Below are positions 28,546-58,224 of a stretch of 64,000 nucleotides of DNA, one piece after another. This DNA is from a bacterium (GTDB lineage Bacteria; Patescibacteriota; Minisyncoccia; Phycocordibacterales; Phycocordibacteraceae), in the NCBI GenBank assembly GCA_023269085.1, contig JAHFML010000001.1, positions 190,356 to 254,355 on the forward strand. Reading direction: 5' to 3'. The translations under genes and the position numbers were made by a program. Positions within the stretch are counted from its first letter, which is position 1. The number at the start of each line of letters is the position of its first letter. The notes beneath the pieces were generated by a model that was given only the letters and a program-made list of their open reading frames with translations, did not search any database and had not been told where the DNA came from.

Positions 28546-29115
28546 CTAGGGATGCTTCCTATTCTTTCTCAAGCTTGAAAAGATTTTATACACCTCGACG
28601 AACGAACCGCGCTTATTCATCCATTCTGGAGGATTGCCCGGCTTGAATCCTATCCACCATGTGTCATGTCCACGTTCGCCACCATGCTGATGCTTCAATT
28701 TCTTGAACGGAATATCCTTTTTGTTGAAAATCCATATTTGTGCGTCGAACGGCGAGATGCCGATACAAATAAGAAACTTATAGTTTTGATCTCGCAATTG
28801 CTGAAAGACATACTGGCCGTTTTCCCACTCGGTCGAAAATTTTATTTCCACTCGCTCGCCCTCGATGATACGGTCCGCATCACTATCCGGTGATCGCACC
28901 ACGTCGAACCCGCGCGCGGCGCACCATCCGGCGATCAACTGTTCGCCGATTTTGCCACGCTGGCGCGATGGTCGGTGTAGTATCCATTCGAACGGGCTCC
29001 CCTGCCAGCGCGCGGCATCTGCTTTTTCATATTCTCCACGAAGCCCGAGTGCAATGCTCGCAAGCAATTCAACGTCTTTATTTTTTAGGCGGCGTTCACT
29101 CATAGTAATTGGCAT
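28546..29115 (-). CDS. putative type II restriction endonuclease (PD-(D/E)xK)
   Basis: 189 aa; SPDSDAD...EGERVEIKFS fits PD...ExK; 16-bp overlap with upstream methyltransferase. Confidence 0.5.
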   Translation of the reverse strand: MPITMSERRLKNKDVELLASIALGLRGEYEKADAARWQGSPFEWILHRPSRQRGKIGEQLIAGWCAARGFDVVRSPDSDADRIIEGERVEIKFSTEWENGQYVFQQLRDQNYKFLICIGISPFDAQIWIFNKKDIPFKKLKHQHGGERGHDTWWIGFKPGNPPEWMNKRGSFVEVYKIFSSLRKNRKHP

Positions 29116-29984
29116 TGTGCTCGTTGCGGGACTCGTATCGGTGATGGTACGGCGCCCTGCGCAAAAGAAACTTCTTTATATTTTTCAAAGCGCTTCTTCA
29201 TTACCTCAATCGCTTCAGGGTTGCTGTCCACGAGGACAAACTCTCGCCCAAGCTCAAGCGCGGCTTCACCGAAGGTTCCGCTCCCGGCAAAAAAATCCAT
29301 GACCGTATCTCCCTCCTGCGAGGACGCGAGAACAATACGACGAATAATACCAAGTGGTTTTTGCGTCGGGTATCCGGTCTTTTCTTTTCCATTCGGACTC
29401 ACGATAGTGTGCCACCACGTGTCGGTCGGTGTCTTACCGAGCGCGGCTTTTTCAGGACCGACGAGCCCGGGTGCCATGTAGGGGATGCGATCGATCTCAT
29501 CATAATTGAAAATGTAATTCTCCGCGTCCTTCGCGTACCAGAATATCGAGTCGTGCTTCGCTGGCCATTTGTTTTTGCTCCGAGCGCCATAGTCATACGC
29601 CCAGATTATTTCATTCAAGAAATTCCCACGACCAAAGATGGTGTCGAGCAGAATTTTGCAGTAGTGCGCTTCGCGATAATCGATATGAAAATATATGCTG
29701 CCGTCTGCTGTCAAAATACGATGCGCTTCGTGTAATCGGGGTTCAAGAAATCCTAGGTAATCGTCAAATGCATCGTGATACGATTTTTCTCCAAGCACGG
29801 TCGTTCGATAGGTGTTTCCTTTAAATCCTATTCGGTCTCCTTGTTCATCGCGCGTTGTCTTGAGCTGTTTGCGAGATTGGACTTTGCCAGTATTAAACGG
29901 CGGATCGATATAGATAAGCGAAACCGATTCTGATGGCATCATGCGCAATGCCTCAAGATTATCGGCAAAAATGACCTTGTTCAT
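29100..29984 (-). CDS. DNA methyltransferase, beta-class (N6-adenine or N4-cytosine)
   Basis: N-terminal DPPF motif IV (LIYIDPPFNTG), C-terminal FxGxG motif I (FFAGSGTFGEAA). Confidence 0.85.
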   Translation of the reverse strand: MNKVIFADNLEALRMMPSESVSLIYIDPPFNTGKVQSRKQLKTTRDEQGDRIGFKGNTYRTTVLGEKSYHDAFDDYLGFLEPRLHEAHRILTADGSIYFHIDYREAHYCKILLDTIFGRGNFLNEIIWAYDYGARSKNKWPAKHDSIFWYAKDAENYIFNYDEIDRIPYMAPGLVGPEKAALGKTPTDTWWHTIVSPNGKEKTGYPTQKPLGIIRRIVLASSQEGDTVMDFFAGSGTFGEAALELGREFVLVDSNPEAIEVMKKRFEKYKEVSFAQGAVPSPIRVPQRAQCQLL

Positions 29985-41515: not shown

Positions 41516-42316
41516 CTACCGAATCTCGTAGGTAATAGAGACCGAGGCGGTGTAGGTGTTGTCGCCTGCAGGGAGTTCGGGCGTCGGTGCGCTTGCTGAA
41601 TCCGTAGCACCCATGCCCTTCGCGTACACCATCGACCGATACCCGCCACTAGACTCAGAGAAGTTCACAATCTTGCCCAAGTGCACGCCAAGCTGGTGCG
41701 CGAGAAGCGACGCTTGCGTCTGCGCCTTCCTTATCGCATCAGTACGCGCCGCGTCATAGCCAGCCGTCGCGTCATCAAGCCCGAAGTCCGGACCCGTCAC
41801 ATTCTGCACGCCGAGCCGGCCGAGACCCCCGACAAAAGCTCCGACCGTTGCGATATCGCGCACCTTAACCTGTATCGACTCCGAGACCTGATAGCCGGTA
41901 ATCTTCGGTGTGCCGCTATAGGCCGGGCAGAACGCGCCAGGCTGACACGGATTCGGATACGAATACTGCGGATAGATTGCGTACGAGCTGGTCATCACGT
42001 CCTTGTCGGCTATCCCCTGCCCCTTCACGAAGGTGAGGGCGGCATTCGCCTGCTTGGTCGTCGCGGCTTGCGCTTCGGCGACCGTCTTGGCCGTATTCTG
42101 CACCATGAACGAAATATTCGCGATGTCCGGCGCCATCGTCACCTGACCATCGCCATTGACCGTAATCGTGTATGCCGAAGGGACGCTCGAACGGCCGAAG
42201 TTCTCAAAAGCTGTTACCGTCTCCGCAACAAGAAAGAGGGCGAGGATAGCGAGCACCCCAATAAGCGCAACGCGCATCCCATCCGTCAGAAGCATCTCTT
42301 GTAGTGATTTGTTCAT
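41516..42316 (-). CDS. SIMPL-domain (DUF541) periplasmic/secreted protein
   Basis: 266 aa; N-terminal TM/signal; SIMPL-like body. Confidence 0.65.
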   Translation of the reverse strand: MNKSLQEMLLTDGMRVALIGVLAILALFLVAETVTAFENFGRSSVPSAYTITVNGDGQVTMAPDIANISFMVQNTAKTVAEAQAATTKQANAALTFVKGQGIADKDVMTSSYAIYPQYSYPNPCQPGAFCPAYSGTPKITGYQVSESIQVKVRDIATVGAFVGGLGRLGVQNVTGPDFGLDDATAGYDAARTDAIRKAQTQASLLAHQLGVHLGKIVNFSESSGGYRSMVYAKGMGATDSASAPTPELPAGDNTYTASVSITYEIR

Positions 42317-42340
42317 GGTAAATATATAAAGCTGATGCCC

Positions 42341-42991
42341 TTATTGTACCACCTGCAGAGTGGTAAGAAGCGTCGTGAGTGCGCGATGCGCCGGGAGCGT
42401 CGCGAGGTCGAGATTCATATCGATCCACTTCGCCACACCACTATCCTTAGCATCGAAGCGTAGGACATCGGTGCCGCGTACGAGATAATAGGCCGTGTCG
42501 ACGACACCTTCGAAGCGTTCGATCGCCGCGACGGTGTACCGGCGACCACCAAGCTCGACTGAAGAGAATGCGGTCACGGCGATCGGCGCGCCACTCGTGC
42601 CACTTATCGCGGTTTGCTGTATCACGGTAGAAGGCGTTGATGATGCCCCCACCGCATATTGCCGGATGACGATACTTGCTGTCGAAGACGCCGACGATGT
42701 AGCGGCAAGCGCATACGCTGCGATACTCGCACTGTCTGGAACCTCGACTGCCGAGAATCCGGCTGGCATGGCGAAGATGAGATGCGCGGCATCGAGTGAG
42801 ACATTTGGCGGCAGACACGGGGCGAAGGTGCACGAGGCGCCCTCGCGCGCGACGCTGGTGCCGTCGGGGCAGAGCTTCGCGTCGACGGGGCACGCGATCG
42901 GCTGATTAGGGTGCTCGACCGCGTTCCGATAGACGAACCCGCCGAAGCCGATGACCATAATGAATAAAATACCAAAAAAGAGTTCTTTCAT
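42341..42991 (-). CDS. membrane-anchored hypothetical protein
   Basis: 216 aa; N-terminal TM then Cys-containing ectodomain. Confidence 0.35.
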   Translation of the reverse strand: MKELFFGILFIMVIGFGGFVYRNAVEHPNQPIACPVDAKLCPDGTSVAREGASCTFAPCLPPNVSLDAAHLIFAMPAGFSAVEVPDSASIAAYALAATSSASSTASIVIRQYAVGASSTPSTVIQQTAISGTSGAPIAVTAFSSVELGGRRYTVAAIERFEGVVDTAYYLVRGTDVLRFDAKDSGVAKWIDMNLDLATLPAHRALTTLLTTLQVVQ

Positions 42992-43465
42992 GGGCGAATA
43001 GTATCACGCACATAGACAAACGTGCGCCCCCGAATGAACGGGGGCGTTTTCTTACCAGCGACGTTTTCGCTTCCCTTTCTGGGAATCCAGACTGAGGAGC
43101 GTTAGCCGGAATGGCGGGCCGATTTCTTGTGTAGCCGGCGTAGGCGGTACTCTCGTCGCCACCCAAGCCATCGAGCCGAGGCTGAGTACTGCACCCGTGG
43201 CGATTAAACCAAAAAACAACATTTCTGTCTTCATAGCATCCTCCTGACATGTTGAACCCAATGGAAGACTATCACAAAACTTGAGAAAAAACTTTGGGCG
43301 ACCTGTGGGGCTTGGTCACAGATAATTCACTCGCCGTCGCTCGTGAATTTCCGCGACCTCGCCTCGCGGTTTCGCCTGCTGGCGAAACATCGCTCCGGCC
43401 TTCAAGCCCCAAAGCACAGCGCCTTACGCTGTGCTTCCGGCGCCCTCTCATCGAGGACTCTTCAA

Positions 43466-43540
43466 GGGCGACCTGTGGGGCTTGAACCCACGACCCTCGG
43501 TACCACAAACCGATGCTCTACCAGCTGAGCTAAGGCCGCC
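43466..43540 (-). tRNA. tRNA-His (GTG)
   Basis: cloverleaf folded by hand: G-1 encoded and paired to C73; D-stem GCTC/GAGC; anticodon loop TTGTGGT; T-loop TTCAAGC. Confidence 0.85.
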
Positions 43541-43595
43541 ATGTTGCGCAGCTATCTGCGCTTATTTTTTATACCACACCTCGCACGATTATGCC

Positions 43596-44129
43596 CTAAT
43601 ACCGCGGCGACTCTTCGGCGATGCCGGCGCGGTGATTCGCGAGGCGCGCGAGCGCGAAGAGGAGCGAAGAGAGGCGGTTCAGATACGCTTTCGTCTCAGC
43701 GCTTGCTGAACAAGCCCCCGCTTCGGCGGCCGCGATGACGCGACGCTCGGCACGACGCGCGATGGTGCGCGCGACATCGAGAATAGCCGAGAGCTCGGTC
43801 CCGCCCGCGATCGAGAAGCCCTTGAGCGGGGGAATTTCTTTTTCTATCTCGTTCACTAGCGCTTCGACGCGCTGCACTTCACTCGTATCGACCGTCTTCT
43901 CGGCTCCCGCGAGCTCGGCCTGGATGATGAAGAGTGTCTCTTGCACGGCGCGAATCGCTGTCGCGATTCGCGCCTCCCCCACCGCCCGCACCTTCACGAA
44001 GCCGAGATACGCGTTCAGCTCGTCGAGCGCGCCGAGCGCCTCGGGCAGTTCAGACGACTTCGAGATCCGCTGTTGGTCACAGCCGAAGGCGGTCGTCGTC
44101 CCTGCGTCCCCTTTGCCAGTGTAGAGCAT
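43596..44129 (-). CDS. ATP:cob(I)alamin adenosyltransferase, PduO/MMAB type
   Basis: 177 aa; LYTGKGDAGTTTAFGCDQ...ALGALDELNAYLG matches PduO-type N-terminus. Confidence 0.8.
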   Translation of the reverse strand: MLYTGKGDAGTTTAFGCDQQRISKSSELPEALGALDELNAYLGFVKVRAVGEARIATAIRAVQETLFIIQAELAGAEKTVDTSEVQRVEALVNEIEKEIPPLKGFSIAGGTELSAILDVARTIARRAERRVIAAAEAGACSASAETKAYLNRLSSLLFALARLANHRAGIAEESPRY

Positions 44130-44220
44130 ACCGCCAGTATACCGCGCCCGCGCTGCCTCTTGACTTTTTTATCAAATATGAGAGACTATCTTTGGCAACT
44201 TTTAAAGAGGAGAGATTGCC

Positions 44221-44370
44221 ATGCTCTATGTGCCTTGGACCGAGAAGCCCTCGATCATCCCGCATGTAAGCCGCGGGGCATTCTGGATAGGAGTTGCGGT
44301 TGCCATTTTCATTCTGGCAATCCTCTCCTTACCAGTCATCTTCCCCTTTCCGCACGACCTCCCCTACTGA
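44221..44370 (+). CDS. possible 49-aa membrane peptide (MLYVPWTEKPSIIPHVSRGAFWIGVAVAIFILAILSLPVIFPFPHDLPY)
   Basis: AGGAG RBS 8 nt upstream; TTGACT box upstream; hairpin+T-run terminator ~44396-44424 downstream; below the ORF-track size cutoff. Confidence 0.3.
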   Translation: MLYVPWTEKPSIIPHVSRGAFWIGVAVAIFILAILSLPVIFPFPHDLPY

Positions 44371-44589
44371 ACTACAAAAAGAGGTCGTGCGTTCACCGGA
44401 CGCCTTGCGTCCGGTTTTCATTTTGTGCCCGGGAGGCTTGGCCACGCATAATTTCTTGCTAGAAATTTGCGCGAGCCCCGCCTCGCGCCGTCGCGCTCCG
44501 GCCTTCAAGTCCTTGCTCCTGTTTGCTCCGCAAACAGTTGCGCCTCCCGGCCAAAATGAAAAGCACCCTTTCGGGTGCTTTTCATTTTG

Positions 44590-44676
44590 TGCCCGGGAGA
44601 GGACTTGAACCTCCATTCCCATAACAGGAGCTACCACCTCAAGGTAGTGCGTCTATCCAATTTCGCCACCCGGGCA
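44590..44676 (-). tRNA. tRNA-Leu (GAG)
   Basis: 87 nt; long variable arm; anticodon loop TTGAGGT; acceptor GCCCGGG/CCCGGGC, discriminator A. Confidence 0.85.
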
Positions 44677-44683
44677 GGTGTCT

Positions 44684-45196
44684 CTACTCTACCACAACTT
44701 CTTCTGTTTTCACTTCCTCAACAACCACCGGCGCCGCGACTGCTTCAACTTCGATCGTCGCCTCTTCTGCAACTTCAACCGGAAGCGTCTCATCGCTCTT
44801 CACGTGCATCATGCGCGCTCCGCGGAGCTGGCGGCGGACTGCCTTCGCCGCCTTCTCGCGGATGAAGTAGAGCTTCGCGCGGCGCACCGTCGAGCGCTTC
44901 ACTATCTCTATTGAGTCTATCGCCGGCGTGTAGAGCGGATACGTCTTCTCGACGCCGACACCCGAGAGCGTGGTGCGGACGGTGAAGGTCGCCCCCGCCT
45001 CGGTGCCGTGCTTGACCGCGATGACGAGCCCCTCGAAGATCTGCTTGCGGACATTCTTCGTTATCTTCTCCTTCTTGTCCGCACCCTTACCCTTCTTCAA
45101 GTCGACGATGTTCTGGGTAACGCGCACGGTGTCGCCCGGGCGTACCCCGAGCGCGGCGCGTCCTGCGGCGTTGACTGGCGTGATGACCTTCTGCAT
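44684..45196 (-). CDS. rplS: 50S ribosomal protein L19 with acidic/Val-rich C-terminal extension
   Basis: 170 aa; L19 core (GDTVRV...FEGLVIAVKHG...TFTVR...SGVGVEKTYPLYTP...RRAKLYF). Confidence 0.9.
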   Translation of the reverse strand: MQKVITPVNAAGRAALGVRPGDTVRVTQNIVDLKKGKGADKKEKITKNVRKQIFEGLVIAVKHGTEAGATFTVRTTLSGVGVEKTYPLYTPAIDSIEIVKRSTVRRAKLYFIREKAAKAVRRQLRGARMMHVKSDETLPVEVAEEATIEVEAVAAPVVVEEVKTEEVVVE

Positions 45197-45223
45197 ATAG
45201 GGCGCACTGTAGCATGACCGGCG

Positions 45224-45961
45224 CTACGCCGCAAATCTCGCGGTCGCCGCGGCGAAATCCCCGGGCACGGGCGCTTCAAAGGTGCAACGCTCGCCCGAGG
45301 GGAGCATGAGAGAAAGTGAAAAAGCGTGGAGCGCTTGGCGCGAGAAGCCGAGGAGAGCTGGACGGCCATTCGCATACAGCTTATCGCCAACGACCGGATG
45401 GCCGAGATGCTTCAAGTGGACGCGGATCTGGTGCGTCCGACCGGTCTTCGGGTGCGCCTCTATGAGCGCGACCGTCTCATTCGTCGCCCCATCGCGGCCG
45501 CGCGCGAGCACGCGCCAGTCGGTAATCGCTACGCGCTGTTTCTTCTCCTCCCTCGCGCGCGCGACGCCCCAGCGCGGCGGCACCGCGCGAATGCGCACGA
45601 TCTCGGCCTCTATTGTGCCGCTGTCGTGCGCGGGATGCCCATAGACGAACGCGCGATACACCTTCTCGGTCGTGCGATTCTGGAATTGCTCTTTGAGCAT
45701 GGCATACGCCTCTTGCGTCTTCGCGAGAATAAGCACGCCCGAAGTGTCGCGATCGAGCCGGTGCACGATGCCCGGGCGCGGGATTATCTCGCCTTGTGGG
45801 CTCTCCCATGGCTCGCCCACCTCTGCCATCATTGGGTATCGCGCGAGCGCCCAGTCGGCCACAGTCGGCTCTTCGGTGCGGCCGTCGCTGTGGACAATCA
45901 GCCCTGCGGGCTTGTTGATCACGACGACATCGGCATCTTCGTAGAGAATGGAGGGTTCCAT
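45224..45961 (-). CDS. RluA-family pseudouridine synthase
   Basis: start at MEPSILYEDADVVVINKPAGL; catalytic HRLDRDTSGVLILAKT. Confidence 0.85.
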   Translation of the reverse strand: MEPSILYEDADVVVINKPAGLIVHSDGRTEEPTVADWALARYPMMAEVGEPWESPQGEIIPRPGIVHRLDRDTSGVLILAKTQEAYAMLKEQFQNRTTEKVYRAFVYGHPAHDSGTIEAEIVRIRAVPPRWGVARAREEKKQRVAITDWRVLARGRDGATNETVALIEAHPKTGRTHQIRVHLKHLGHPVVGDKLYANGRPALLGFSRQALHAFSLSLMLPSGERCTFEAPVPGDFAAATARFAA

Positions 45962-45972
45962 ATTATTTGATT

Positions 45973-46048
45973 TGGTGCATCCTGCAGGACTCGAACCTGC
46001 GACCTTCTCAGTGTAAATGAGTTGCTCTACCAACTGAGCTAAGGATGC
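45973..46048 (-). tRNA. tRNA-Val (TAC)
   Basis: 76 nt incl. encoded CCA; anticodon loop TTTACAC; T-loop TTCGAGT. Confidence 0.85.
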
Positions 46049-46068
46049 GTGGTCAGGATTAATCCCGG

Positions 46069-46152
46069 TGCCGCGAGGGAGACTTGAACTCCCAACCCCT
46101 TGCGAGGACTAGCTCCTGAAGCTAGCGTGTTTACCAATTTCACCACCGCGGC
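46069..46152 (-). tRNA. tRNA-Leu (CAG)
   Basis: 84 nt; long variable arm; anticodon loop TTCAGGA; acceptor GCCGCGG/CCGCGGC. Confidence 0.85.
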
Positions 46153-46159
46153 AAGACTT

Positions 46160-46637
46160 GATTATGCTCATACTTTGCTGAACTTTCAAATATTTCCTCT
46201 TCAGCAACGGTATGCCTTTTCTATAATACAGGTAATTACACAAAATGACCGCTTCTCTCTTGGCGAACCGAAGTTGAACATACGTCGTGCCGGCATACCG
46301 AGTTATATGACCTTTTACATGAACCATGTCACTTATTCGCTTTCGCAACCAATCGATGAAGGGCGGACTCGCCGATAAGAAACTCGCGAAATAAGACATC
46401 GCCAAACTGAATGCGATGGTAAAGGTTCCCTGTTCCAGAATGTTTAATCCCAATCTTTGTTTTGATACCGAAACATTTCTTGAAAGTTACGACTTGTTCA
46501 AGATCTTTTGAAGTGAAATCAATATGTCTGCCGTCATTCAACAGACAGCCATCTGCCGTTAATAATCCGATTGCGTACGCAAATTTTGGTGACCATTCGA
46601 TCTTTACTGCCCCTTTTGGCTTTGGTCCCCTCTTCAT
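46160..46637 (-). pseudogene. frameshifted LAGLIDADG homing-endonuclease remnant in an AT-rich insert
   Basis: ORF 46329..46637 carries a LAGLIDADG-like block FAYAIGLLTADGCL; a second half continues in another frame (ORF 46109..46453, ...YVQLRFAKREAVILCNYLYYRKGIPLLKRKYL); local GC ~40%. Confidence 0.6.
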
Positions 46638-46733
46638 TGCCTTTATTATAAACTGACCTATATAGCGTATACCAATTTATCCACTATGCCAGAAAAAACG
46701 GCCTGCCGCGAGGCAGACCGAATTGGCTTCCAA

Positions 46734-47663
46734 TTACTTCAAATCATCGAGGTACGTCTTGAGCGCAAACGCTCGCCACGAACCCGACTCGACCCCGCGC
46801 AAGACGAAACGACTCACCTCGATTCTGAACTCCTCTTGCCTCCCCTGTTTGATCAACAGGGCGAGCTTTCGGATATCCTTCTTCTTCGGGTTGTTGGCCC
46901 CTTTCGCAAGAAAGCCGATCAACTCCTCATAAAGATGACGATCGTTCAGCAGAATGGTGGCAAGCTTCTCGAGCCTGACGATGCACTTCAAATACGCTGA
47001 CCGATAATCAGCCAGCCGCACCAGCAAGCTCGCGACAAGGCGCACCACGCCTCGTTCGCTTACCACCTCATTTTCAAGCATGAACTGAATCGCTTCCGCG
47101 CTTCCCGCGAGACCAATGTCGACATGCGGTTCGAGACATTTCGACTTGAGGAATTCGCTTGAGATATGTTCTATCCCCCGCTCCCAAGCCTTAATTTCTC
47201 GTGCCACCGCTTCATACGGGAGGCTTGCCATGCCGACAATCTCATCGCCACCGTATCTCCCGAAGGAAACACAGGGAGCCTGGTCGGTCGTAGCACCAAT
47301 ACTGCTCAAGAGAGCATCACCGGCTTCGTGTGAAGCGTTGTTCACCAGACTCAAGAACGACACATCCCCGAACACGATCCAGAGGTCATTCTCGGCGCCG
47401 ATTGACTCACGCCCTTCGGACAACCGGTTATTCTCAATCTCCTCCGGCAAAAGAATACCCTTGACCTTTTCATTCAGGAACTGGAACCATTGCCCCCGAG
47501 TGAACAAACCGGTAACCATGTCGACACCGGCGTGCACCAATTCGTCTCGGGCGGACCGGAGCTCTGATTGCAATCCGACATTGTTCCTCTGTATCTCCTT
47601 ATGGAGTTTCGGGTATCGTCTGTCGAAGTCGGCTTTCAATATGTCTTGGCACTTCATGCACAC
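46734..47663 (-). CDS. GGDEF-domain protein (diguanylate-cyclase-like) with C-terminal domain of unknown function
   Basis: 309 aa; GGDEF-type motif RYGGDEI; lower-GC DNA. Confidence 0.6.
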   Translation of the reverse strand: MCMKCQDILKADFDRRYPKLHKEIQRNNVGLQSELRSARDELVHAGVDMVTGLFTRGQWFQFLNEKVKGILLPEEIENNRLSEGRESIGAENDLWIVFGDVSFLSLVNNASHEAGDALLSSIGATTDQAPCVSFGRYGGDEIVGMASLPYEAVAREIKAWERGIEHISSEFLKSKCLEPHVDIGLAGSAEAIQFMLENEVVSERGVVRLVASLLVRLADYRSAYLKCIVRLEKLATILLNDRHLYEELIGFLAKGANNPKKKDIRKLALLIKQGRQEEFRIEVSRFVLRGVESGSWRAFALKTYLDDLK

Positions 47664-48033
47664 TCTCCTTATGCAAGTTGGGCTCCGCGTATGCGGAGCC
47701 CGGGTTGAAGTTCATGCGGCGTCCTTTTTGAAAGGCCGCCCCCAGACCTCGTCGGGGTCAATCAGCGACGATGATGGCAGTGCTGCAAACGCGGCACTGC
47801 GATGCGCTTCTTCTTCGCGCGCATCGACTGCTACGATGCCGAGCGCAACGTTCTGGCGAGCAAGCCCGCGAAGTGACCCATCAGGGTCCCACTTGTTGAA
47901 AAAATCTTTCAGGCTCTCTCGAGCCAAGAGATTGTTTTTCATACCATGCTCCTTGGTTGGTTACGGGAACAACTTCCAGTTAAAAGTATACCAAAATACC
48001 AAAAATAATCAACTATCCCAAATTTCTGTCTGT

Positions 48034-48108
48034 TGGTGCCCCCGCGAGGAGTCGGACCTCGAATAGCGGCTTAGAAGTCCGCAGTTATATCCGTTTAACT
48101 ACAGGGGC
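48034..48108 (-). tRNA. tRNA-Arg (TCT)
   Basis: 75 nt incl. CCA; acceptor GCCCCTG/CGGGGGC; D-loop AACGGATA with A20; anticodon loop CTTCTAA; imperfect 31-39 pair. Confidence 0.7.
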
Positions 48109-48138
48109 GCTTCTCCTCTACCCTACTCTATTCGTGCG

Positions 48139-48450
48139 CTATTGCGAAGGGTCAGCGAAGCGGTACACGCCCGAGACATACTTCGCTTCTTCTTGTGCTC
48201 GAGTCGCGAATATCTCGTTGATCGTCGTGAGTGACGACTTATCGAAGATCGGCGCTTTCTCGATTGGGGCTGTCCCTATGGTGCCGCCGTTCGCGACCGT
48301 GTCGAATGCCCACGCGTTCCACACGATACCAACTCCGAATGCCATGCACGCGAGCGCGATGAGTGCTATCCAGTCGCGCGCCGGATCGATCCGAGAAAAA
48401 ATCCGCAGGCGATTGAGAAACGACGTAAAAAAGGGTTGTAGGGCAGTCAT
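48139..48450 (-). CDS. hypothetical small membrane protein downstream of pilO
   Basis: 103 aa; one TM; last gene of the pilMNO cluster. Confidence 0.3.
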   Translation of the reverse strand: MTALQPFFTSFLNRLRIFSRIDPARDWIALIALACMAFGVGIVWNAWAFDTVANGGTIGTAPIEKAPIFDKSSLTTINEIFATRAQEEAKYVSGVYRFADPSQ

Positions 48451-48452
48451 GG

Positions 48453-49001
48453 TTATTGGGTGGTACTCGTCGCCGCAGGTGCAGGGAGCGATCCTGCGAC
48501 AAGGCTAATATCGGCGCCCCATCTGGAGCCCGCCTCTTTGTCGGTAATATCATGGGTTACCGTGAGTGTCGAGATCTCAATATCGTAGGGCGCATACTCG
48601 ATCGCGCCGACGGTACGCATGACCGCATCGAATGTTCCCTTCACCGAGAGAGCGAGCTTGAGAATAGGTTGCCCTTCACGAGTGCTGGCCGAGACAGAGA
48701 GGACGCTCACCTCGGTCTTCTGCGCCGCACCGAGCGCTTCGAGCGCAGTAATGAACGAGACAATGTCCGCTTCAGATACGAAATAGCTCTGTATCGTCGC
48801 CTCATCGCCCTTGATCTCTGCCAATGCCGTACGAACTGATTCGGTGCGAGCAACCGATCTGGTTGCAGCAGTTATCTGTTCCCCGAGACTGACGACCGTG
48901 GCGCTTTTCTGTGAGATGGTGGCATACTCCGCCACATAACCCATAAGGAGAATGCTCCCTACCACAAGAGCAATGATGAGATGTGTGCCGGAAGATTTCA
49001 T
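48453..49001 (-). CDS. pilO: type IV pilus assembly protein PilO-like
   Basis: 182 aa; N-terminal TM, coiled-coil, PilO-like C-terminus; ATGA overlap with pilN. Confidence 0.55.
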   Translation of the reverse strand: MKSSGTHLIIALVVGSILLMGYVAEYATISQKSATVVSLGEQITAATRSVARTESVRTALAEIKGDEATIQSYFVSEADIVSFITALEALGAAQKTEVSVLSVSASTREGQPILKLALSVKGTFDAVMRTVGAIEYAPYDIEISTLTVTHDITDKEAGSRWGADISLVAGSLPAPAATSTTQ

Positions 49002-52367: not shown

Positions 52368-52439
52368 GCTCTCGTCGTTCAACGGATAGGACACCAGCTT
52401 GCGGAGCTGGCAATCAAGGTTCGATTCCTTGCGAGAGCA
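52368..52439 (+). tRNA. tRNA-Arg (GCG)
   Basis: 72 nt, no CCA; shares 5' half GCTCTCGTCGTTCAACGGATAGGA and T-arm with tRNA-Arg(CCG) at 58150; anticodon loop TTGCGGA. Confidence 0.7.
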
Positions 52440-52735
52440 CAATAAAGCGAAGCGAATATTGTGCTCGAGAGCACGTCTGGGAGACGTGCGGCAAGGAATC
52501 GAAAACCTTGCGAGCATTTTATCGAGCTTTCTGAAGCGAAGAAAAAATCCGCAAGGTGTACGCTGAGATTTTAAAAGAGCGAAGCGACTATTAAAATCCA
52601 AGTGCAGTTTCGAAGAAAGCTGCCTGAACCTGTAAGGTTCGATAAGCGTACTCGCGGTCCTTGCAAGCGTACTTTTCATTCTGAACGATTTGCAGGAAGA
52701 CGTCTCGTAGTACTATAAATACTGAGAATTAACGT

Positions 52736-53290
52736 ATGTCTAAATCTACTAACCTTAAATACTACTATCTCGAACAATATCTTGAAACAGAGGTACGGCC
52801 TTATTTTGAAAAAGAACATCACCTTACATCCGAACAGTTTTTTGCGATTATCGAATGGAAGAATCCGAAGTTTGGAAAGACTAAACTCACACACCTCAAA
52901 CCAAAAGACATAGAAAAACTTTTTAAAACTATTTACGGCGAGTCTAGGGAAAAGCAACTGAAAATTCTAGTAGACATTAAAGGTCTAAAGCTAGCCACTG
53001 CTTCTGCAATCCTTACGATTCTATATCCAGAAAGGTTTACGGTTTATGATGTGCGTGTTCGAAAGCAATTAAGAAAGCGAGGTCTGTGGGAAGAAGAACC
53101 CGATGATATTACTTATTGTGTCGACGTGGTAAATAGATACTTTGATAAATATCTACCCCCGATAGAGAAACTGGCTACAGACAGCGGGCTATCACTTCGT
53201 GATTGCGATCGTGCCTTGTGGGCACAAGATTGGCATGAAGACCTGATGGACTTCATTATTGCAGGTTCGAGCGAAAACAACACGGTTTAA
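52736..53290 (+). CDS. hypothetical protein (possible HhH-like motif), low-GC
   Basis: 184 aa; IKGLKLATASAILTILYPERFTVYDVRV; ~40% GC. Confidence 0.3.
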   Translation: MSKSTNLKYYYLEQYLETEVRPYFEKEHHLTSEQFFAIIEWKNPKFGKTKLTHLKPKDIEKLFKTIYGESREKQLKILVDIKGLKLATASAILTILYPERFTVYDVRVRKQLRKRGLWEEEPDDITYCVDVVNRYFDKYLPPIEKLATDSGLSLRDCDRALWAQDWHEDLMDFIIAGSSENNTV

Positions 53291-53298
53291 AATAATAT

Positions 53299-53913
53299 AT
53301 GAACTACTTCAAACCGATCCTGTATAGCATCAGTGTCCTTCTACTGGTCGCGCTGGTGTCCATTCGGTATCAACACGCAACACAAAAGGTTGTTGTGCCG
53401 ACTGTCTCATCAGCAACCTCATCAAACGACGCACCCTCTGATATGAGTCCCAACTGTGCCGCCTATTACAACAACGCAGGGAACGGTACGGACCCAATTG
53501 ATACGGAGCTCGCCGACTTCACTAACTTACACCCACTTTCTGATTATCTCTGCGGATCATATTCAGATGTCCTGAAGACGACACTAGCTGACGGCAAGGT
53601 TCTCTATTTTGTAGATCCAATCGCTCAAGAATCGTGTGGTAGCGGCGGGTGTACATATTTCCCCATGATTGAGGAGAGGCCGGGCGCAATCCGCCGTATA
53701 CGCGGTTTTACGGGTGGTTCTGACGCAGGTGATGACTCAGTCTTTGGCTTCCTGTCTTTCCCAAAGAAAGGAGTGGTGGAGGTGTACTGGCACGAGTCGG
53801 CAACATGCGGCACGACGAACACTTACGGATTCACTGCTACCGATACTCCTTATCTAATCTCCACATCTGACAGCTGCTCACAAGAAGGAGGCGTACAGCC
53901 TCAAAGAAAATAG
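53299..53913 (+). CDS. secreted/membrane-anchored Cys-rich hypothetical protein
   Basis: 204 aa; N-terminal hydrophobic segment; 8+ Cys. Confidence 0.35.
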   Translation: MNYFKPILYSISVLLLVALVSIRYQHATQKVVVPTVSSATSSNDAPSDMSPNCAAYYNNAGNGTDPIDTELADFTNLHPLSDYLCGSYSDVLKTTLADGKVLYFVDPIAQESCGSGGCTYFPMIEERPGAIRRIRGFTGGSDAGDDSVFGFLSFPKKGVVEVYWHESATCGTTNTYGFTATDTPYLISTSDSCSQEGGVQPQRK

Positions 53914-53930
53914 GTGCTCGTATTTATCTC

Positions 53931-54002
53931 GCCTCCGTAAGCTAACGGATAAACTACCTCGCTTCTATCGAGGCCTTGGGGGTTCGAATCCTCTCGGAGG
54001 CA
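53931..54002 (+). tRNA. tRNA-Arg (TCT), second copy, island-associated
   Basis: 72 nt; acceptor GCCTCCG/CGGAGGC; D-loop AACGGATA; anticodon stem CCTCG/CGAGG, loop CTTCTAT; T-loop TTCGAAT. Confidence 0.65.
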
Positions 54003-54015
54003 CTGATGGTAAATC

Positions 54016-54154
54016 CTCGCCGCGATTTCGTTTCCCGCTTCGGCCGAATCAATCGACCATGCCGTAGCGGGCAACCCCGAGGCCATCATGGCGCAGGTCG
54101 GCGCCATGCACCTTACGCCGCTTTCCGATCAGGATGCGGCGCAGGTGCGAGGTG
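54016..54154 (+). repeat. leader-module repeat copy 1 (5'-truncated; starts 14 nt after the tRNA)
   Basis: 139 bp nearly identical to the 3' part of copies 2 and 3. Confidence 0.8.
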
Positions 54155-54393
54155 AGGGAATCTCTGTAGCCGTATTGATTGTCAACCTCAAGTGGCTTTA
54201 CAAAGTTTCCGCACCTTTCAGGCAATTCATGAGTGGCTACAGAGCGAGTCAGATATTTGGTTGGGAATGGGGCAGAGCGTTATCAATTGCCCAAGGCAAT
54301 CCAGATCCTGGGCAATTGTCTAGCCATTCGCTAGAAGCTACATTCATTTACTGGCTTGGTAATAACTGGACATATCAACTCTTTTACAAATAG
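54088..54393 (+). CDS. cassette 1: truncated secreted-peptide precursor (conserved leader remnant + unique AT-rich C-terminal part)
   Basis: MAQVGAMHLTPLSDQDAAQVRG then divergent 80 aa; in-frame upstream TAA removes the signal peptide, so possibly a pseudogene. Confidence 0.4.
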   Translation: MAQVGAMHLTPLSDQDAAQVRGEGISVAVLIVNLKWLYKVSAPFRQFMSGYRASQIFGWEWGRALSIAQGNPDPGQLSSHSLEATFIYWLGNNWTYQLFYK

Positions 54394-54495
54394 CACACAT
54401 GAAATATATGCGTGGCGCTCTGTAGAAACTGATGAGTCCAAAGAGGGTCTACAGACCCTCTTTTTATTTGTCATGATTGTGGTAGATTCCCTTAT

Positions 54496-54840
54496 ATGAA
54501 GAAACTACTAAACAAAATCCTGTTTGCACAATATCTCTTCGCGCCAGAGATTATTCCTTTATTGGCGATTCTTTACTTCTTCGCCATGGTCTTTTCGGTG
54601 CACTTTGTGTTGTCTCTTTTTGTAGAAATAAACACGACTATCTTGATTTGGGTCTTCGTTATTGCCATGGTGGTGTTTGCCGTAACATTTCTTCCCGTAA
54701 TGATGCGGTTTGCGAGTGGTTGGCCATCGGGAAAAGAGGAGGAAAATTTGATTGATAAGTCCAGTCCAAGTGATCGTATTATTTATACTCTACTGTTTCT
54801 CGCTTCTATCTTCGTATTTTATTATATCTATGTGAAATAA
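54496..54840 (+). CDS. small polytopic membrane protein (immunity-protein-like), AT-rich
   Basis: 114 aa; 3 TM helices; directly downstream of cassette 1. Confidence 0.35.
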   Translation: MKKLLNKILFAQYLFAPEIIPLLAILYFFAMVFSVHFVLSLFVEINTTILIWVFVIAMVVFAVTFLPVMMRFASGWPSGKEEENLIDKSSPSDRIIYTLLFLASIFVFYYIYVK

Positions 54841-54920
54841 GAAGCTGACGTGTTTGGGGTGAACAGATACGCAACCAAATGGCGTATGGTATGTTGAGAA
54901 GTGGACATAGTTCTTTTCCC

Positions 54921-55143
54921 GAAGAACATCCTGTCCGTTCCCTTCAAACTCTCAAGGAGTCTGCAATGCGTACAGCATTCACTGCAGTACTCGCGGCGAT
55001 ATCCCTCGCCGCGATTTCGTTTCCCGCTTCGGCCGAACCGATCGACCATGCCGTAGCGGGCAACCCCGAGGCCATCATGGCGCAGGTCGGCGCCATGCAC
55101 CTTACGCCGCTTTCCGATCAGGATGCGGCGCAGGTGCGAGGTG
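54921..55143 (+). repeat. leader-module repeat copy 2 (5' UTR + RBS + signal peptide + conserved leader)
   Basis: ~223 bp, ~98% identical to copy 3. Confidence 0.85.
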
Positions 55144-55331
55144 CAGCATGGATGATTCCTGGTTGGATGTACGCCATCGTTTCTAAATTTCTGAGTGCAG
55201 GACATCTGGTAAGCTCATTCGGCGCCAGTTACCTGAATCAGATGGCGGCCGAGTATGGCTGGAAAATAAACGGCATCCCAGTACGGTTCTCTCTCATGGA
55301 TGCAATCTTCGTAGCTCCACCTGCACGTTAA
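54966..55331 (+). CDS. cassette 2: secreted peptide precursor (Sec signal + conserved LSDQDAAQVRG leader + unique Trp/Tyr-rich C-terminal peptide)
   Basis: AAGGAG RBS; MRTAFTAVLAAISLAAISFPASA signal with AxA site; conserved 36-aa leader; unique 62-aa tail. Confidence 0.55.
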   Translation: MRTAFTAVLAAISLAAISFPASAEPIDHAVAGNPEAIMAQVGAMHLTPLSDQDAAQVRGAAWMIPGWMYAIVSKFLSAGHLVSSFGASYLNQMAAEYGWKINGIPVRFSLMDAIFVAPPAR

Positions 55332-55394
55332 ACAATACTCAAAGTACGGTTTGATGTGTATAACCGGACGCCCCCAATTGGGGGCGTTTTTATA

Positions 55395-56150
55395 TCATAG
55401 ACTTGTGATTAAGTTCCCAATAATGTCTGATTTTCGTATCGGTCCGAACGAGCGTGAGTCGGTGCTTGAAGCGCGATTATCACCAAGCACAAAATATTCA
55501 TCGGGACCGAGCGTGGTGACAGAATCCGGTGTTGTGCTCCCGAGTGAATAGGGTTCATTTAATGATAATCCGTTTGCGGACACTACTCCACCACGAATAT
55601 CGATACGCTCGCCAGGTAATCCGATAACTCGCTTAATGATAAATGCTGGTGCCGATACATCTTGTTCACGCGATACAACCACCTCTCCTCGCAGGAAATT
55701 GTGCGGGATTTCATTTACAATGAGGTACGCTCCGTTTTGATACGTTGGTATCATGGAGTCCCCACTCATCACAAATGGCGAAACGATAAACATCCTAATC
55801 ATCAGTGCCAAGGGCACTACTATTGCAATAGTTATACTGATTGATGCAAGATAGGCACTTGTTGCACGTAGAAAAGATACGGGGAATCTCCTCTTGAGGA
55901 GCCACGTGCAGATACCGATTGATACGATCGCGTCGAATACGAGCGGGATTGGCAATGCGACGATGCGCACCATTTCTCCCGCAAGTCCGCCCGCGATATT
56001 TGCCACGAGCACAGTGATAACGGCATACCCAAATGTCGGACGAGGGAATGCAAACCTTCTTTCGACCCACAGGAGAACAGCGGAGCTAAGTGTGAGAGAC
56101 AGAACGGCAACTACTGTCATAACAATGATGAGCACTGTTGAGATATTCAT
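55395..56150 (-). CDS. lepB: signal peptidase I (S26) with unusual ~120-aa, 4-TM N-terminal extension
   Basis: catalytic SGDSMIPT and GDNRASSTDSRSFG motifs; start taken at MNISTV. Confidence 0.8.
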   Translation of the reverse strand: MNISTVLIIVMTVVAVLSLTLSSAVLLWVERRFAFPRPTFGYAVITVLVANIAGGLAGEMVRIVALPIPLVFDAIVSIGICTWLLKRRFPVSFLRATSAYLASISITIAIVVPLALMIRMFIVSPFVMSGDSMIPTYQNGAYLIVNEIPHNFLRGEVVVSREQDVSAPAFIIKRVIGLPGERIDIRGGVVSANGLSLNEPYSLGSTTPDSVTTLGPDEYFVLGDNRASSTDSRSFGPIRKSDIIGNLITSL

Positions 56151-56207
56151 ATCTACTAAGAATACCACGTGTGGTGTTCGGTGATATTCGATTATTTCGA
56201 GTTAAGA

Positions 56208-56431
56208 AGAAGAACATCCTGTCCGTTCCCTTCAAACTCTCAAGGAGTCTGCAATGCGTAAAACATTCACGGCAGTACTCGCGGCGATATCCCTCGCCGC
56301 GATTTCGTTTCCCGCTTCGGCCGAACCAATCGACCATGCCGTAGCGGGCAACCCCGAGGCCATCATGGCGCAGGTCGGCGCCATGCACCTTACGCCGCTT
56401 TCCGATCAGGATGCGGCGCAGGTGCGAGGTG
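56208..56431 (+). repeat. leader-module repeat copy 3
   Basis: ~224 bp. Confidence 0.85.
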
Positions 56432-56595
56432 AGTTCTTGCCCGCTGCGATTATCCCAATGTTGAATTACATTTACTACTTGGGGGTGATGTATGGAATAC
56501 CTACCGCAGTTAATTACGCAGCGGAGATCGGCAGTAGCCCTTGGATTGCAAAGCAATATGTGAAGGACCAAGTCAAGAAGTATTTTGGCTGGTAA
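56254..56595 (+). CDS. cassette 3: secreted peptide precursor (same signal + leader, different C-terminal peptide ending KYFGW)
   Basis: MRKTFTAVLAAISLAAISFPASAEPIDHAVAGNPEAIMAQVGAMHLTPLSDQDAAQVRGE then a unique hydrophobic/aromatic 55 aa. Confidence 0.55.
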   Translation: MRKTFTAVLAAISLAAISFPASAEPIDHAVAGNPEAIMAQVGAMHLTPLSDQDAAQVRGEFLPAAIIPMLNYIYYLGVMYGIPTAVNYAAEIGSSPWIAKQYVKDQVKKYFGW

Positions 56596-56694
56596 GCAAT
56601 TCGATGAGTACTGAATAACTTCGGCATCAACAAAAAGTGCCATGCTGGATCAGCATGGCACTTTACTATATAAATCTGATACAATTTCACTATC

Positions 56695-57081
56695 ATGATC
56701 TTCTGGAAGATATTTGCTTGGACAAATGCAATTATAAATGTTCCGTTCGTTATAGCGGCTCTTTTCGTCACGCCAGTGTTCCACGCCCTCGATGTCGCCG
56801 TATGGTTATTCAACGACTTTCCATTACTGGCTGTCCCTTTCTTGTTTGCGTACAAAGTACACGGAAAGAGATATATTCCTGCACTCGGTGTTTTAAAAGC
56901 TATTTTTGTTTTCTCTATAACTTATAACACCATTCACACCATCTCCGATTTCAAAGTATACCACTTCACTAGTATGCCCGGATTCCTGTTCGATTTGTCT
57001 TTTTATATCCTCATCATTCTGTCATTAATTTCTTTTTTGTTCTACATAAAAATGGAACGCGGCCTACAAGCGCATCATTAG
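56695..57081 (+). CDS. small polytopic membrane protein (immunity-protein-like), AT-rich
   Basis: 128 aa; 4 TM helices; directly downstream of cassette 3. Confidence 0.35.
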   Translation: MIFWKIFAWTNAIINVPFVIAALFVTPVFHALDVAVWLFNDFPLLAVPFLFAYKVHGKRYIPALGVLKAIFVFSITYNTIHTISDFKVYHFTSMPGFLFDLSFYILIILSLISFLFYIKMERGLQAHH

Positions 57082-57433
57082 CGCAGATCATATTCCACTT
57101 CCAGCGGCAGAGTTCCATCGTGGTAGATTCACTATATATGAAAGACTGCAAAAAGACAGGAACAACCATATGATGCATACTATATGAAGGGAGATCTCTA
57201 ATATATGGAAATCACTTTTTTCTCTGCGCTTAAACTTATAGGAATTGTTCTCGGGCTTGTGGCCATTTTTGCGAGTTTTGCTTTCCCTCTATTTTCAAGC
57301 ACTCAATTTGATGACATGCCAATCTGGATAAAAATCCTCGTTCCCATGATTATTACGGCGATTTCATTTTGGGTTATACGATAATCCGCAAACGAATATT
57401 TTAAAAATATCCTGGATACCGTATTGTTATCGC

Positions 57434-57631
57434 ATGCAAAAAATACTGTTCGATATTCTTATTTTGATTGGTGTCGGTATTGGCATTTTGTCGATTACTG
57501 CCCAAATAGCCCATAGTCTGTTCTCGGGCGTATCTTTCGATTCTTTGTCATGGAAAGTCAAAATGGCCATGGCAGTTGTGGTGGCACTCATTTTCTCAAT
57601 TTTTGAATGGTACACGTATACTCTCCTGTAA
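57434..57631 (+). CDS. small 2-TM membrane peptide, AT-rich
   Basis: 65 aa; a second 59-aa membrane peptide ORF lies at ~57206-57385 (MEITFFSALKLIGIVLGLVAIFASF...). Confidence 0.25.
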   Translation: MQKILFDILILIGVGIGILSITAQIAHSLFSGVSFDSLSWKVKMAMAVVVALIFSIFEWYTYTLL

Positions 57632-57698
57632 CAAGACCTAATTACGGATACTAAGAAGTCCCGCGATTGGTAGTCGCGGGACTGTGGCGCATCGATAT

Positions 57699-58061: not shown

Positions 58062-58149
58062 CGTGCCCTCCTTGTGGGTGATGAAGCAGGACATCCTGCA
58101 CCACCAAGTGTATACCTAATTTCAAAACTTGCTGTATGGTGAGTGCACA

Positions 58150-58224
58150 GCTCTCGTCGTTCAACGGATAGGATAGCCCCCTCCGAAGGGGCCGATGACG
58201 GTTCGATTCCGTCCGAGAGCACCA
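58150..58224 (+). tRNA. tRNA-Arg (CCG)
   Basis: 75 nt incl. CCA; anticodon stem GCCCC/GGGGC, loop CTCCGAA; 5' half identical to tRNA-Arg(GCG). Confidence 0.8.

Follow-up and report, generated by a model that had tools for sequence, protein, structure and literature searches.

Small gene-free cassettes with a conserved fold at the 3' ends of tRNA genes in Patescibacteria: a candidate family of non-autonomous insertions

Results

A cassette behind tRNA-His

The window analysed here is a stretch of 64,000 nucleotides from a patescibacterium (assembly GCA_023269085.1, contig JAHFML010000001.1), and it carries behind tRNA-His(GTG) a hairpin-rich insert of about 150 nt bounded by two copies of the tRNA 3' end, which we refer to as a cassette. 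The tRNA gene lies at 43466-43539 on the minus strand (ARAGORN; 63.8 bits with the Rfam tRNA model) and ends ...GTCGC-C73-C74 without an encoded CCA. A preliminary description, made from the letters alone, had noticed that the 3' end of this gene recurs about 170 bp downstream, at ~43295-43316, positions that proved correct to within 1-2 nt. A repeat search of the window gave the 19-nt sequence GGGCGACCTGTGGGGCTTG at 43296-43314 and 43466-43484, 100% identical and at a spacing of 170 nt; on the tRNA strand it reads CAAGCCCCACAGGTCGCCC and spans T-loop C56 through C74. An exact repeat of 19 nt at such a distance (within 400 nt) far exceeds what chance would produce, and dozens of independent loci show the layout again.

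All parts of the cassette were placed on the minus strand. The proximal repeat, X1 (43466-43484), is the tRNA 3' end itself, comprising T-loop C56, the 3' strand of the T-stem, the 3' strand of the acceptor stem, C73 and C74, and it is identical to the distal repeat X2 at 19 of 19 positions. Behind it a spacer was read as TTGAAGAGTCCTCGATGAGA (43446-43465), in which a terminator scan found no intrinsic terminator on this strand, whereas most family members have one; nothing terminator-like stands between tRNA and core in this copy, which has a U-run after the helix P1 described below. The next component, anti-acc (GGGCGCC, 43439-43445), was read from the sequence, is equally placed in other copies and matches the reverse complement of the acceptor 3' strand (GGTCGCCC) imperfectly. 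Hairpin A (AAGCACAGCG-TAAG-GCGCTGTGCTT, 43412-43436, minimum free energy fold) divides the inverted tRNA copy into two parts, anti-acc and anti-T. Anti-T (GGGGCTTG, 43403-43410) was found by k-mer search as the inverted 11-mer TGGGGCTTGAA; if the next two letters, AA, are included, it reverse-complements tRNA positions 54-63 (TTCAAGCCCC) exactly, and it forms the 5' strand of the predicted helix P1, which pairs it with X2 over 10 pairs. The conserved core (43314-43402), the top covariance-model match in the window (108.9 bits, E = 6e-22), consists of a junction AAG and two domains, P2 (43361-43399), which has an AGCA-capped hairpin and the internal loop G-GA/GA, and P3 (43314-43358), which has a GGUC...GACC base, a conserved G.U and the apex GAGC-GACG-GCGAG. 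X2 (43296-43314; repeat search), the copy of the tRNA-His 3' end and 3' strand of P1, is followed by what appears to be the ancestral flank, AAAG-TTTTTT and then a GTGATAGT motif as at empty sites. The several hairpins that had been noted in the insert were borne out by folding (-93.4 kcal/mol, z = -6.25), none of 200 shuffles folding as well, and no conserved open reading frame (ORF) was found in the ~150 bp.

A second copy lies on the same strand behind tRNA-Leu(GAG) (44589-44675), at 44396-44599, with a covariance-model match at 44438-44506 (E = 2e-6), an nhmmer match (E = 2e-20) and a fold z of -9.9. Repeat search and reading of the sequence placed its X1 plus flank at 44579-44599, a perfect, bidirectional terminator hairpin at 44553-44588, anti-acc (CCGGGAGGC) at 44542-44550 and anti-T at 44506-44513. 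Hairpin A was predicted by folding at 44519-44537, the minimal core is the model match at 44440-44506, and X2 was located by the repeat search at 44415-44439, after which half of an older terminator was recognized at 44396-44424. The repeat of this tRNA gene itself covers 33 nt at 85% identity (44403-44435 and 44567-44599). The sequence block described earlier as common to the two elements is the 16-mer CGCTCCGGCCTTCAAG, which occurs exactly twice in the 64 kb (43391-43406 and 44494-44509), at equivalent places after tRNA-His and tRNA-Leu(GAG). It joins part of the inverted T-loop (CTTGAA) to the conserved core start (GGCCGGAGCG); the anti-T sequences, GGGGCTTGAA in the His and AGGACTTGAA in the Leu copy, are exact complements of tRNA positions 54-63.

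Empty sites and displaced flanks in relatives

For comparison, 80 syntenic loci were retrieved through L19 and neighbour proteins from metagenome-assembled genomes of Candidatus Kaiserbacteria / Paceibacterota, which marks the organism as Kaiserbacteria-like, whereas a look-up of the exact L19 protein returned no record; compared loci are labelled by L-numbers (L001, L046, L276 etc.). Their common gene order is tRNA-Arg(tct), Leu(cag), Val(tac), rluD, rplS, Leu(gag), cob adenosyltransferase and His(gtg). A covariance model, R1, was built from the cassette core and used on the window plus these loci (81 sources) and on metagenomic contigs. It found 25 copies in the 81 sources, each of them immediately downstream of a tRNA and in the orientation of that tRNA.

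Family cassettes are small (about 100-300 bp), have no ORF and sit at tRNA gene 3' ends. On the tRNA strand the order is tRNA (its 3' end being X1), spacer, anti, core, X2 and original downstream flank, the spacer being usually an A-tract/hairpin/T-tract terminator and anti the reverse complement of the tRNA 3' end. The core starts (GA)A-R-GSCGGAG, R-GCCGGAGCG, and ends GUGACC (GTGACC or GTGGCC in DNA), a layout that points to a conserved RNA gene. Equivalents of hairpin A, differing in sequence, are present in the Leu copy and in L006, L013, L038, L046, L047, L201, L245 and L276.

The preliminary description had suggested looking for empty sites and for copies elsewhere. Most relatives have the tRNA without the element (first-screen occupancy 5/48 for tRNA-His, 11/67 for Leu(GAG), 3/59 for Leu(CAG) and 3/70 for Val, with about 12 of the 67 Leu(GAG) genes taken as occupied overall, counts that vary with detection thresholds), and copies were found behind many other tRNAs. 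The repeat is thus not a trailer structure kept in all relatives without empty sites or additional copies, because empty sites are the rule.

The sequence beyond X2 agrees with that of unoccupied genes. In L046, X1 lacks CCA and is followed by the terminator, while X2 reads ...CTGGGCA-CCA-GTAGTAACTTGTTCTGCATTTC..., with the same encoded CCA and flank as in L030 and L062, where tRNA-Leu is unoccupied; the flank following X2-CCA is GTAGTAACTTGTTC.... The Val copies have TTGAAAC after X2, as do the empty sites L022 and L055, and the GTGATAGT motif of the His locus recurs in the empty sites L007 and L036 and after X2 in L047. An encoded CCA is present on X2 and absent from X1 in at least four copies (L046, L045, L234 and the Leu-tag copy of L304), and it is rarer at occupied genes (6/51) than at unoccupied ones (86/307). 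Derivation of the terminator from the local flank was rejected, the virgin flank in L030 and L062 having none. Compared with L046, L048 retains the X1-terminator-anti-acc part while core and X2 are gone, and it looks like a cassette scar; the older terminator remnant behind X2 of the window Leu copy is read as another scar. Tandem or nested copies and right-end remnants (...CCGTGACC plus X2) lie downstream in L276, L225, L264, L254, L304, L040 and L073, which fits repeated insertion next to the tRNA. As judged from these comparisons, X2 and the sequence beyond it are the ancestral tRNA 3' end and flank, and the cassette is an insertion that has been gained and lost; it is specific for tRNA gene 3' ends, where the tRNA itself stays whole and one copy of the tRNA 3' end is displaced.

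The same loci bear on a different explanation, in which the element is a host-serving, tRNA-specific trailer RNA whose closing helix copies the tRNA 3' end and whose patchiness reflects loss. Such an RNA might be a processing signal like the 't-elements' of plant mitochondria, a nuclease decoy or a spare 3' fragment for tRNA repair, its identity to the tRNA being kept by function or gene conversion. An orientation that is constantly that of the tRNA agrees with it. However, most orthologous tRNA genes have no cassette, one genome has it at some tRNAs only, the tandem and nested arrays with their remnants typify repeated insertion, and the ancestral flank and CCA are retained at X2.

A covarying core on the tRNA strand

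The core fold was evaluated in 21 'type II' cores aligned with MAFFT without structure information; these were aligned alone, with separate hidden Markov models (HMMs), because a single MAFFT alignment of all core types misplaced the 5' motif. The core (65-110 nt) folds as two helical domains, P2 with its G-GA/GA internal loop and capped hairpin, and P3 with a GGUC/GACC base, a long hairpin and the apex GA-GC-GACG-GC-GA. Across the 21 copies 96.2% of the pair cells are paired, against 78.8% in shuffles, with both-side changes at 21 of 29 pairs and 109 compensatory cells where 31 were expected; none of 500 shuffles reached the observed score, and slid controls were 29-47% paired. The same fold was predicted independently by RNAalifold (23 of 31 pairs compensatory).

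Among the non-Watson-Crick pairs of the core there are 36 G.U against 3 A.C, and G.U occupies columns 54:90 in 19 of 21 copies. The excess of G.U over A.C places the fold on the tRNA strand, and the conserved wobble together with the tandem G.A motifs argues for RNA, so the core most likely acts as an RNA that would be transcribed with or just after the tRNA. A guide RNA on the opposite strand (omega-RNA/crRNA-like) was rejected on these same wobble counts, and the shallow copies described below would give it a 'guide' of only 5-7 nt. The selection on the core also agrees with a trailer RNA in the service of the host: it is strongly purifying, and compensatory changes are seen even among orthologues (the Val copies of L035 and L041).

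Core length varies between subtypes. In the shorter 'type I' core of the window Leu copy the mini-hairpin GCGC-GACG-GCGC replaces the long P2 hairpin, and the long variants L001 and L038 carry an additional module. Between copies at different tRNAs homology begins at (GA)A-R and ends at GACC, covering the core only; for example, the first 55 core nucleotides of L304 Leu(tag) and L245 Pro are identical and their flanks unrelated.

A fold of this kind could also work as single-stranded DNA, as in miniatures of the insertion sequence (IS) family IS200/IS605, in attC sites or in the attP hairpin of CTX phage. X1, hairpin and anti would in that case fold from one strand into a mimic of the double-stranded target, on which a tyrosine or HUH enzyme would act in trans. 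The order of target half, hairpin arm, loop, inverted arm, element and regenerated target corresponds to the integrated topology of CTX-phage-type integration, and the palindrome X1-terminator-anti crosses the boundary between tRNA and flank, a DNA-level feature. The right end, a hairpin with a ~10-nt linker ending GACC, resembles the right ends of IS608, strand-specific G.T pairs are compatible with single-stranded DNA, and loops of the GCGAAGC type, known as stable DNA mini-hairpins, are present. Nevertheless, the core has features typical of RNA (helix-capping loops, a conserved G.U and tandem G.A motifs), neither an HUH transposase nor an integrase was seen near any copy (window ORFs read by eye; 25 loci), the direct repeats are long and variable (2-22+ nt) where IS200/IS605 makes none, and an element carrying a target mimic is not easily spread to at least 22 tRNAs. 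We therefore give a purely DNA-level hairpin element little chance.

Flanks derived from the local tRNA gene

Anti and X2 match the local tRNA gene, including its flank, in every copy. The complementarity of anti to the gene extends, as a palindrome, over the tRNA/flank boundary into the A-rich genomic flank. In deep copies the complement of T54 is the last position of anti and C56 the first of X2, and in shallow copies anti has 5-7 nt (e.g. TGGTGCG opposite CGCACCA) and X2 has 2-5 nt from the discriminator, sometimes with more flank. The junctions, at the T-loop (54-56) in deep copies and at the discriminator/CCA tail in shallow ones, lie where a folded tRNA would be unpaired.

Anti and X2 pair as the predicted helix P1, of 5-15 bp with the 4-nt junction GAAR, and P1 is modelled to close a three-way junction with P3 stacked directly on it. 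Unlike the core, P1 has mismatches without wobble bias (12 G.U and 11 A.C), so the flanking tRNA copies look like DNA-level footprints, and in the old copies L035 and L013 anti has decayed while the core is intact. Three other readings were rejected: priming by mature tRNA (of the primer-binding-site type), since anti matches the gene and its A-rich flank and not an added CCA (L006, L046 and the window Leu copy); a hammerhead, whose core the order of the junction sequences misfits on reading; and an intron in the T-loop, since X1 already completes the tRNA.

The lack of RNA-type wobble bias in P1, the decay of anti beside an intact core and an X2 of just 2-5 nt in shallow copies all weigh against a trailer RNA serving the host. 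In its favour, orthologous Leu(GAG) copies differ in the acceptor part of X2 in step with their local tRNA, the 3' end of the element imitates a helix plus N73-C-A, and both junction sites, the T-loop and the acceptor end, are places cut by toxins such as the contact-dependent inhibition toxins of Burkholderia. On balance we regard this explanation as unlikely, if still deserving serious weight.

Copies behind at least 22 tRNA isoacceptors

Further copies were sought in metagenomic contigs, taken without taxonomic assignment, through one scan with a strict pattern that favours a single core subtype; its matches were then screened with HMMs and the covariance model. About 40 copies were recovered, behind tRNA-Ser(gga, gct, cga), Glu(ctc, ttc), Ala, Lys, Pro, Cys, Trp, Arg(gcg, ccg), Met, Val(tac, cac), Leu(tag), Gly(ccc, tcc) and Gln. 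With the Kaiserbacteria loci (including Leu gag/cag and His), at least 22 tRNA isoacceptors are represented.

For 25 of the 40 metagenomic matches a tRNA was called on the same strand no more than 500 nt upstream, and six matches are at contig edges. The remaining nine include four duplicated or tandem copies (L234, L254) and two (L297, L286) that follow visible tRNA 3' halves missed by ARAGORN; no recognizable tRNA was found upstream of the matches in L236, L237 and L273. The second copy in L279 has no called tRNA, and our tentative impression is that the upstream tggtgggcgg may resemble an antisense tRNA 3' end.

Several of these contigs show additional features. In L297 (~1200-1400) the cassette follows a clear, uncalled tRNA 3' half (GGGTTCGATTCCCGGCGTCTCCACA), and the sequence upstream of it resembles the 3' part of an intron; this tRNA probably carries an intron, which would fit the group I introns reported in Patescibacteria tRNA genes (PMC13011429). 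L234 (3075-4110) has the tRNA-Ser(GCT) cassette twice, near-identical and with identical cores, bracketing an ORF of ~550 bp. The duplicated unit runs from the last 5 tRNA nucleotides through core and X2 to ~45 nt of flank, and the discriminator differs between X1 (...TCTCC-G-CA) and X2 (...TCTCC-A-CCA). Behind tRNA-Arg(GCG) of L276 (623-1010) there is a deep copy, its X2 and then a shallow copy with a different core, and the array is followed by a ~55-nt direct repeat of the post-tRNA spacer (TAGCCAAACGAAGTGAGGACATGCTCCCGGAGCACATGAACTGCTTCATGTGC), showing that duplications can reach well beyond the tRNA. The hairpins between tRNA and core often have (A)CTGC(T) or GAAA loops (e.g. L209, L225, L228, L276, L284, L046), and stem families such as ACGCC-GAAA-GGCGT and GGAGCCGYATGC-GAAA-GCRTGCGGC recur across loci, which suggests that these hairpins are bound by a common factor or move together with the cassette.

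Gene content and database searches

No gene that could move the cassette was recognized. Its neighbours in the window are housekeeping genes (cob adenosyltransferase, L19, RluD), no integrase-, transposase- or recombinase-like ORF was seen when the window ORFs were read by eye (Pfam was run on 7 ORFs only), and clustering of 292 ORFs around 25 loci gave no recurrent recombinase, reverse transcriptase, nuclease or other neighbour protein. Rfam 15 returned tRNAs only for 42000-49000 of the window (E <= 1) and noise only for the element alone (E <= 10), and there was no covariance-model match of the element to any curated family, hammerhead, twister-sister, T-box, Y RNA/YrlA and tmRNA included. 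None of 120 viral contigs, GC-rich chance matches of a broad DNA pattern, matched the family HMMs, and BLAST against GenBank phage and plasmid records gave no match to the family. Literature searches found nothing comparable, the sole related subject being the group I introns of Patescibacteria, which occur in tRNA anticodon loops (PMC13011429) and are unrelated to the cassette.

The preliminary description had offered two readings, an att-type duplication left by an integrating or excised element and a miniature tRNA-targeting insertion element. The second gained support: empty sites prevail, further copies stand behind many tRNAs and an apparently ancestral flank follows X2. The first did not hold for a classical element, the insert being a conserved covarying fold at at least 22 isoacceptors with no integrase or recurrent gene nearby. 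One form of it assumes a large integrase island or prophage in the tRNA that has since lost nearly all its DNA, leaving attL and attR. Direct repeats of a tRNA 3' end are indeed the classical signature of integrases, and other anomalous low-GC segments adjoin tRNA genes in the window. Still, the insert size is uniform and its core shared, no integrase remnant was found in the window or at the 25 loci, the viral contigs and the phage and plasmid records gave no match, and an inverted tRNA copy is foreign to att scars. This origin is largely refuted and, in our estimate, very improbable.

Other features of the window

A divergent relative of the cassette probably lies on the plus strand behind tRNA-Arg(GCG) (52368-52440), at 52441-52672, where an inverted T-arm 13-mer and a fold z of -4.6 were found. 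Its parts are a hairpin (52441-52460), anti-acc GTGCTC (52461-52466), hairpin A (52471-52489), anti-T GCAAGGAATCGAA (52491-52503), an inner-fold hairpin GAACC-TGTAA-GGTTC (52626-52640) unlike the family core, and a degenerate X2 (52656-52672) that closes the fold with anti-T. By its outer architecture we tentatively count this insert as a family member; the assignment is tentative because the covariance model does not match it and its alignment to the long variants L001 and L038 is weak. A short repeat resembling the tRNA-Leu(CAG) end, at 46704-46718, was rejected as merely a terminator hairpin.

Between tRNA-Arg(TCT) and tRNA-Leu(CAG), which in the relatives L001, L002 and L004 are about 0-50 nt apart, the window has ~1.9 kb with a GC content of 0.50 (46109-48033). 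LAGLIDADG-like ORF fragments at 46109-46453 and 46329-46637 end at the start of tRNA-Leu (LAGLIDADG_3, E = 3e-4, just below the curated cut-off), and a 309-aa ORF at 46734-47663 has no Pfam match. The segment was probably inserted separately and carries, next to a tRNA, what would be a free-standing homing-endonuclease gene. A low-GC block (0.46-0.48) at 52700-58150 separates tRNA-Arg(GCG) from tRNA-Arg(CCG), genes whose 5' and 3' ends are almost identical. It holds a second tRNA-Arg(TCT) (53931-54003), three ORFs that repeat the peptide ...AEPIDHAVAGNPEAIMAQVGAMHLTPLSDQDAAQVRG... (54088-54393, 54879-55331 and 56254-56595) and a 257-aa membrane ORF (55395-56168) judged signal-peptidase-like by its sequence. 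No integrase was seen in the block, which may be an island or a duplicated cassette region. A lower-GC ORF pair at 28546-29984, in which 29100-29984 has the N4/N6 DNA methyltransferase motif IYIDPPFNTG beside a 189-aa ORF, is our guess for a restriction-modification module unrelated to the cassette.

Discussion

With moderate confidence, we interpret the cassettes as a new, apparently undescribed family of non-autonomous structured-RNA insertions at tRNA 3' ends in Patescibacteria (Kaiserbacteria/Paceibacterota and related metagenomic lineages). The core would be both the functional and the mobile unit, inserted at the tRNA 3' end in trans by an enzyme whose gene lies elsewhere. The tRNA copies, inverted and direct, would be products of insertion at the DNA level, not RNA helices under selection, and repeat or palindrome correction between nearby copies may also refresh these flanks. 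As X1 remains the intact tRNA 3' end, an essential single-copy tRNA would survive the insertion. The core RNA would derive from the tRNA transcription unit. In the transcript, anti and X2 (P1) would close the three-way junction and the 3' end would resemble an acceptor (helix plus N73-C-A), and since P1 or P3 with N73-C-A imitates an acceptor end, tRNA-processing enzymes may trim the transcript ends. One economical but speculative route to matched flanks at a new tRNA is a harmless shallow insertion in the CCA region followed by templated extension of both palindromes; other routes considered were target-primed reverse transcription of a trailer RNA and the integration of a small circle (X-terminator-anti-core), either of Campbell type or as a folded single strand.

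Several points weigh against this interpretation. Enzyme, intermediate and transcript are unseen, and mobility is deduced only from presence and absence, flank comparison and arrays. None of the models tested simply explains how a new copy comes to have anti and X2 matched to its new tRNA. In orthologous Leu(GAG) copies the X2 acceptor part follows each genome's own tRNA, which calls for re-insertion, gene conversion or function, so that a 'dead footprint' is perhaps too simple. Patchiness could partly result from loss by X1/X2 recombination and regain by homologous recombination, without transposition. Most copies have a terminator-like hairpin between tRNA and core, so expression of the core is not assured, and as G.T is tolerated in single-stranded DNA the fold could act in that form.

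Two bolder readings, equally unprecedented, seem improbable. In one, the cassette would be a self-targeting RNA-guided mobile system: the P1 strands anti and X2 would serve as re-writable, tRNA-derived guides to both strands of the tRNA gene, tRNA-processing enzymes would release the RNA, and the RNA would direct or template its own insertion, for which a bridge-RNA-like recombinase or target-primed reverse transcription, encoded elsewhere, could be used. In the other, a tRNA-specific 'spare 3' fragment or decoy' RNA would counter nucleases that cut the T-loop or the acceptor end.

The insertion cassettes combine features of several known systems. They share with tRNA-targeting integrase islands and prophages the tRNA 3' target, the bracketing direct repeat, the intact tRNA, the displaced old flank and the empty sites. 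They differ in their size of ~150 bp without an integrase or any gene, in one core for at least 22 isoacceptors, in the extra inverted target copy, in a covarying inner fold of RNA type and in a bimodal repeat length of 2-5 nt or 17-22+ nt. Like miniature inverted-repeat transposable elements (MITEs) and IS200/IS605 miniatures, they are short, non-coding, hairpin-rich and multi-copy, and would depend on an enzyme in trans; unlike these, they stand only behind tRNA genes, in one orientation and not dispersed, and no parent IS was found. In contrast to MITEs they have no terminal inverted repeats inside X1/X2, the inverted repeat being anti against X2, and their duplications range from 2 to >22 nt. 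With respect to IS200/IS605, hairpins are present and the junctions fall directly after GTTC or ...GAA, but there are long duplications. Hairpin arms mimicking a double-stranded target, a regenerated target copy and the lack of a recombinase on the element recall CTX phage, integrative mobile elements exploiting Xer (IMEX) and attC, whereas the target is a tRNA and not dif/attI, XerC/D or R'/R'' motifs are absent (T-loop GTTCRA vs GTTRRRY), the cassette is tiny and its conserved part is RNA-like.

RNA-based systems offer likenesses of their own. The predicted RNA of ~100-170 nt, with paired ends, an inner domain of short hairpins and then a long hairpin, is similar to retron msr-msd; unlike retrons, there is no adjacent or recurrent reverse transcriptase (25 loci). 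Segments that match the DNA target are reminiscent of the bridge/seek RNAs of IS110. Unlike IS110/IS1111, however, the cassette has no ORF or DEDD recombinase, its fold consists of two plain stem domains plus P1 with a closing helix taken from the neighbouring tRNA, and direct repeats of 17-22 nt are not made by IS110 elements. As a tRNA trailer with an acceptor-like 3' end and C(C)A, the cassette resembles t-elements, mascRNA, YrlA and small RNAs from 3' external transcribed spacers, and such an end could recruit RNase P, RNase Z or the CCA-adding enzyme. Unlike t-elements and YrlA-type RNAs, it matches its cognate tRNA by duplication, is patchy and insertion-like, and has a non-tRNA core with G.A motifs.

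The target copied inverted and direct around a core is unlike known products of integrases, transposases or retroelements, so recombination or an RNA-dependent process of an unknown kind may be at work. We place the cassette with the site-specific elements that target tRNA genes, and the chance that its mechanism is new is a real one. The covariance model permits annotation of the cassettes and a search for the enzyme through co-occurrence across genomes. With strong covariation and no Rfam match, the core is a candidate new RNA family in the small, reduced genomes of Patescibacteria, whose tRNA genes appear to have been repeatedly remodelled by a gene-less cassette able to strip the encoded CCA and add a terminator.

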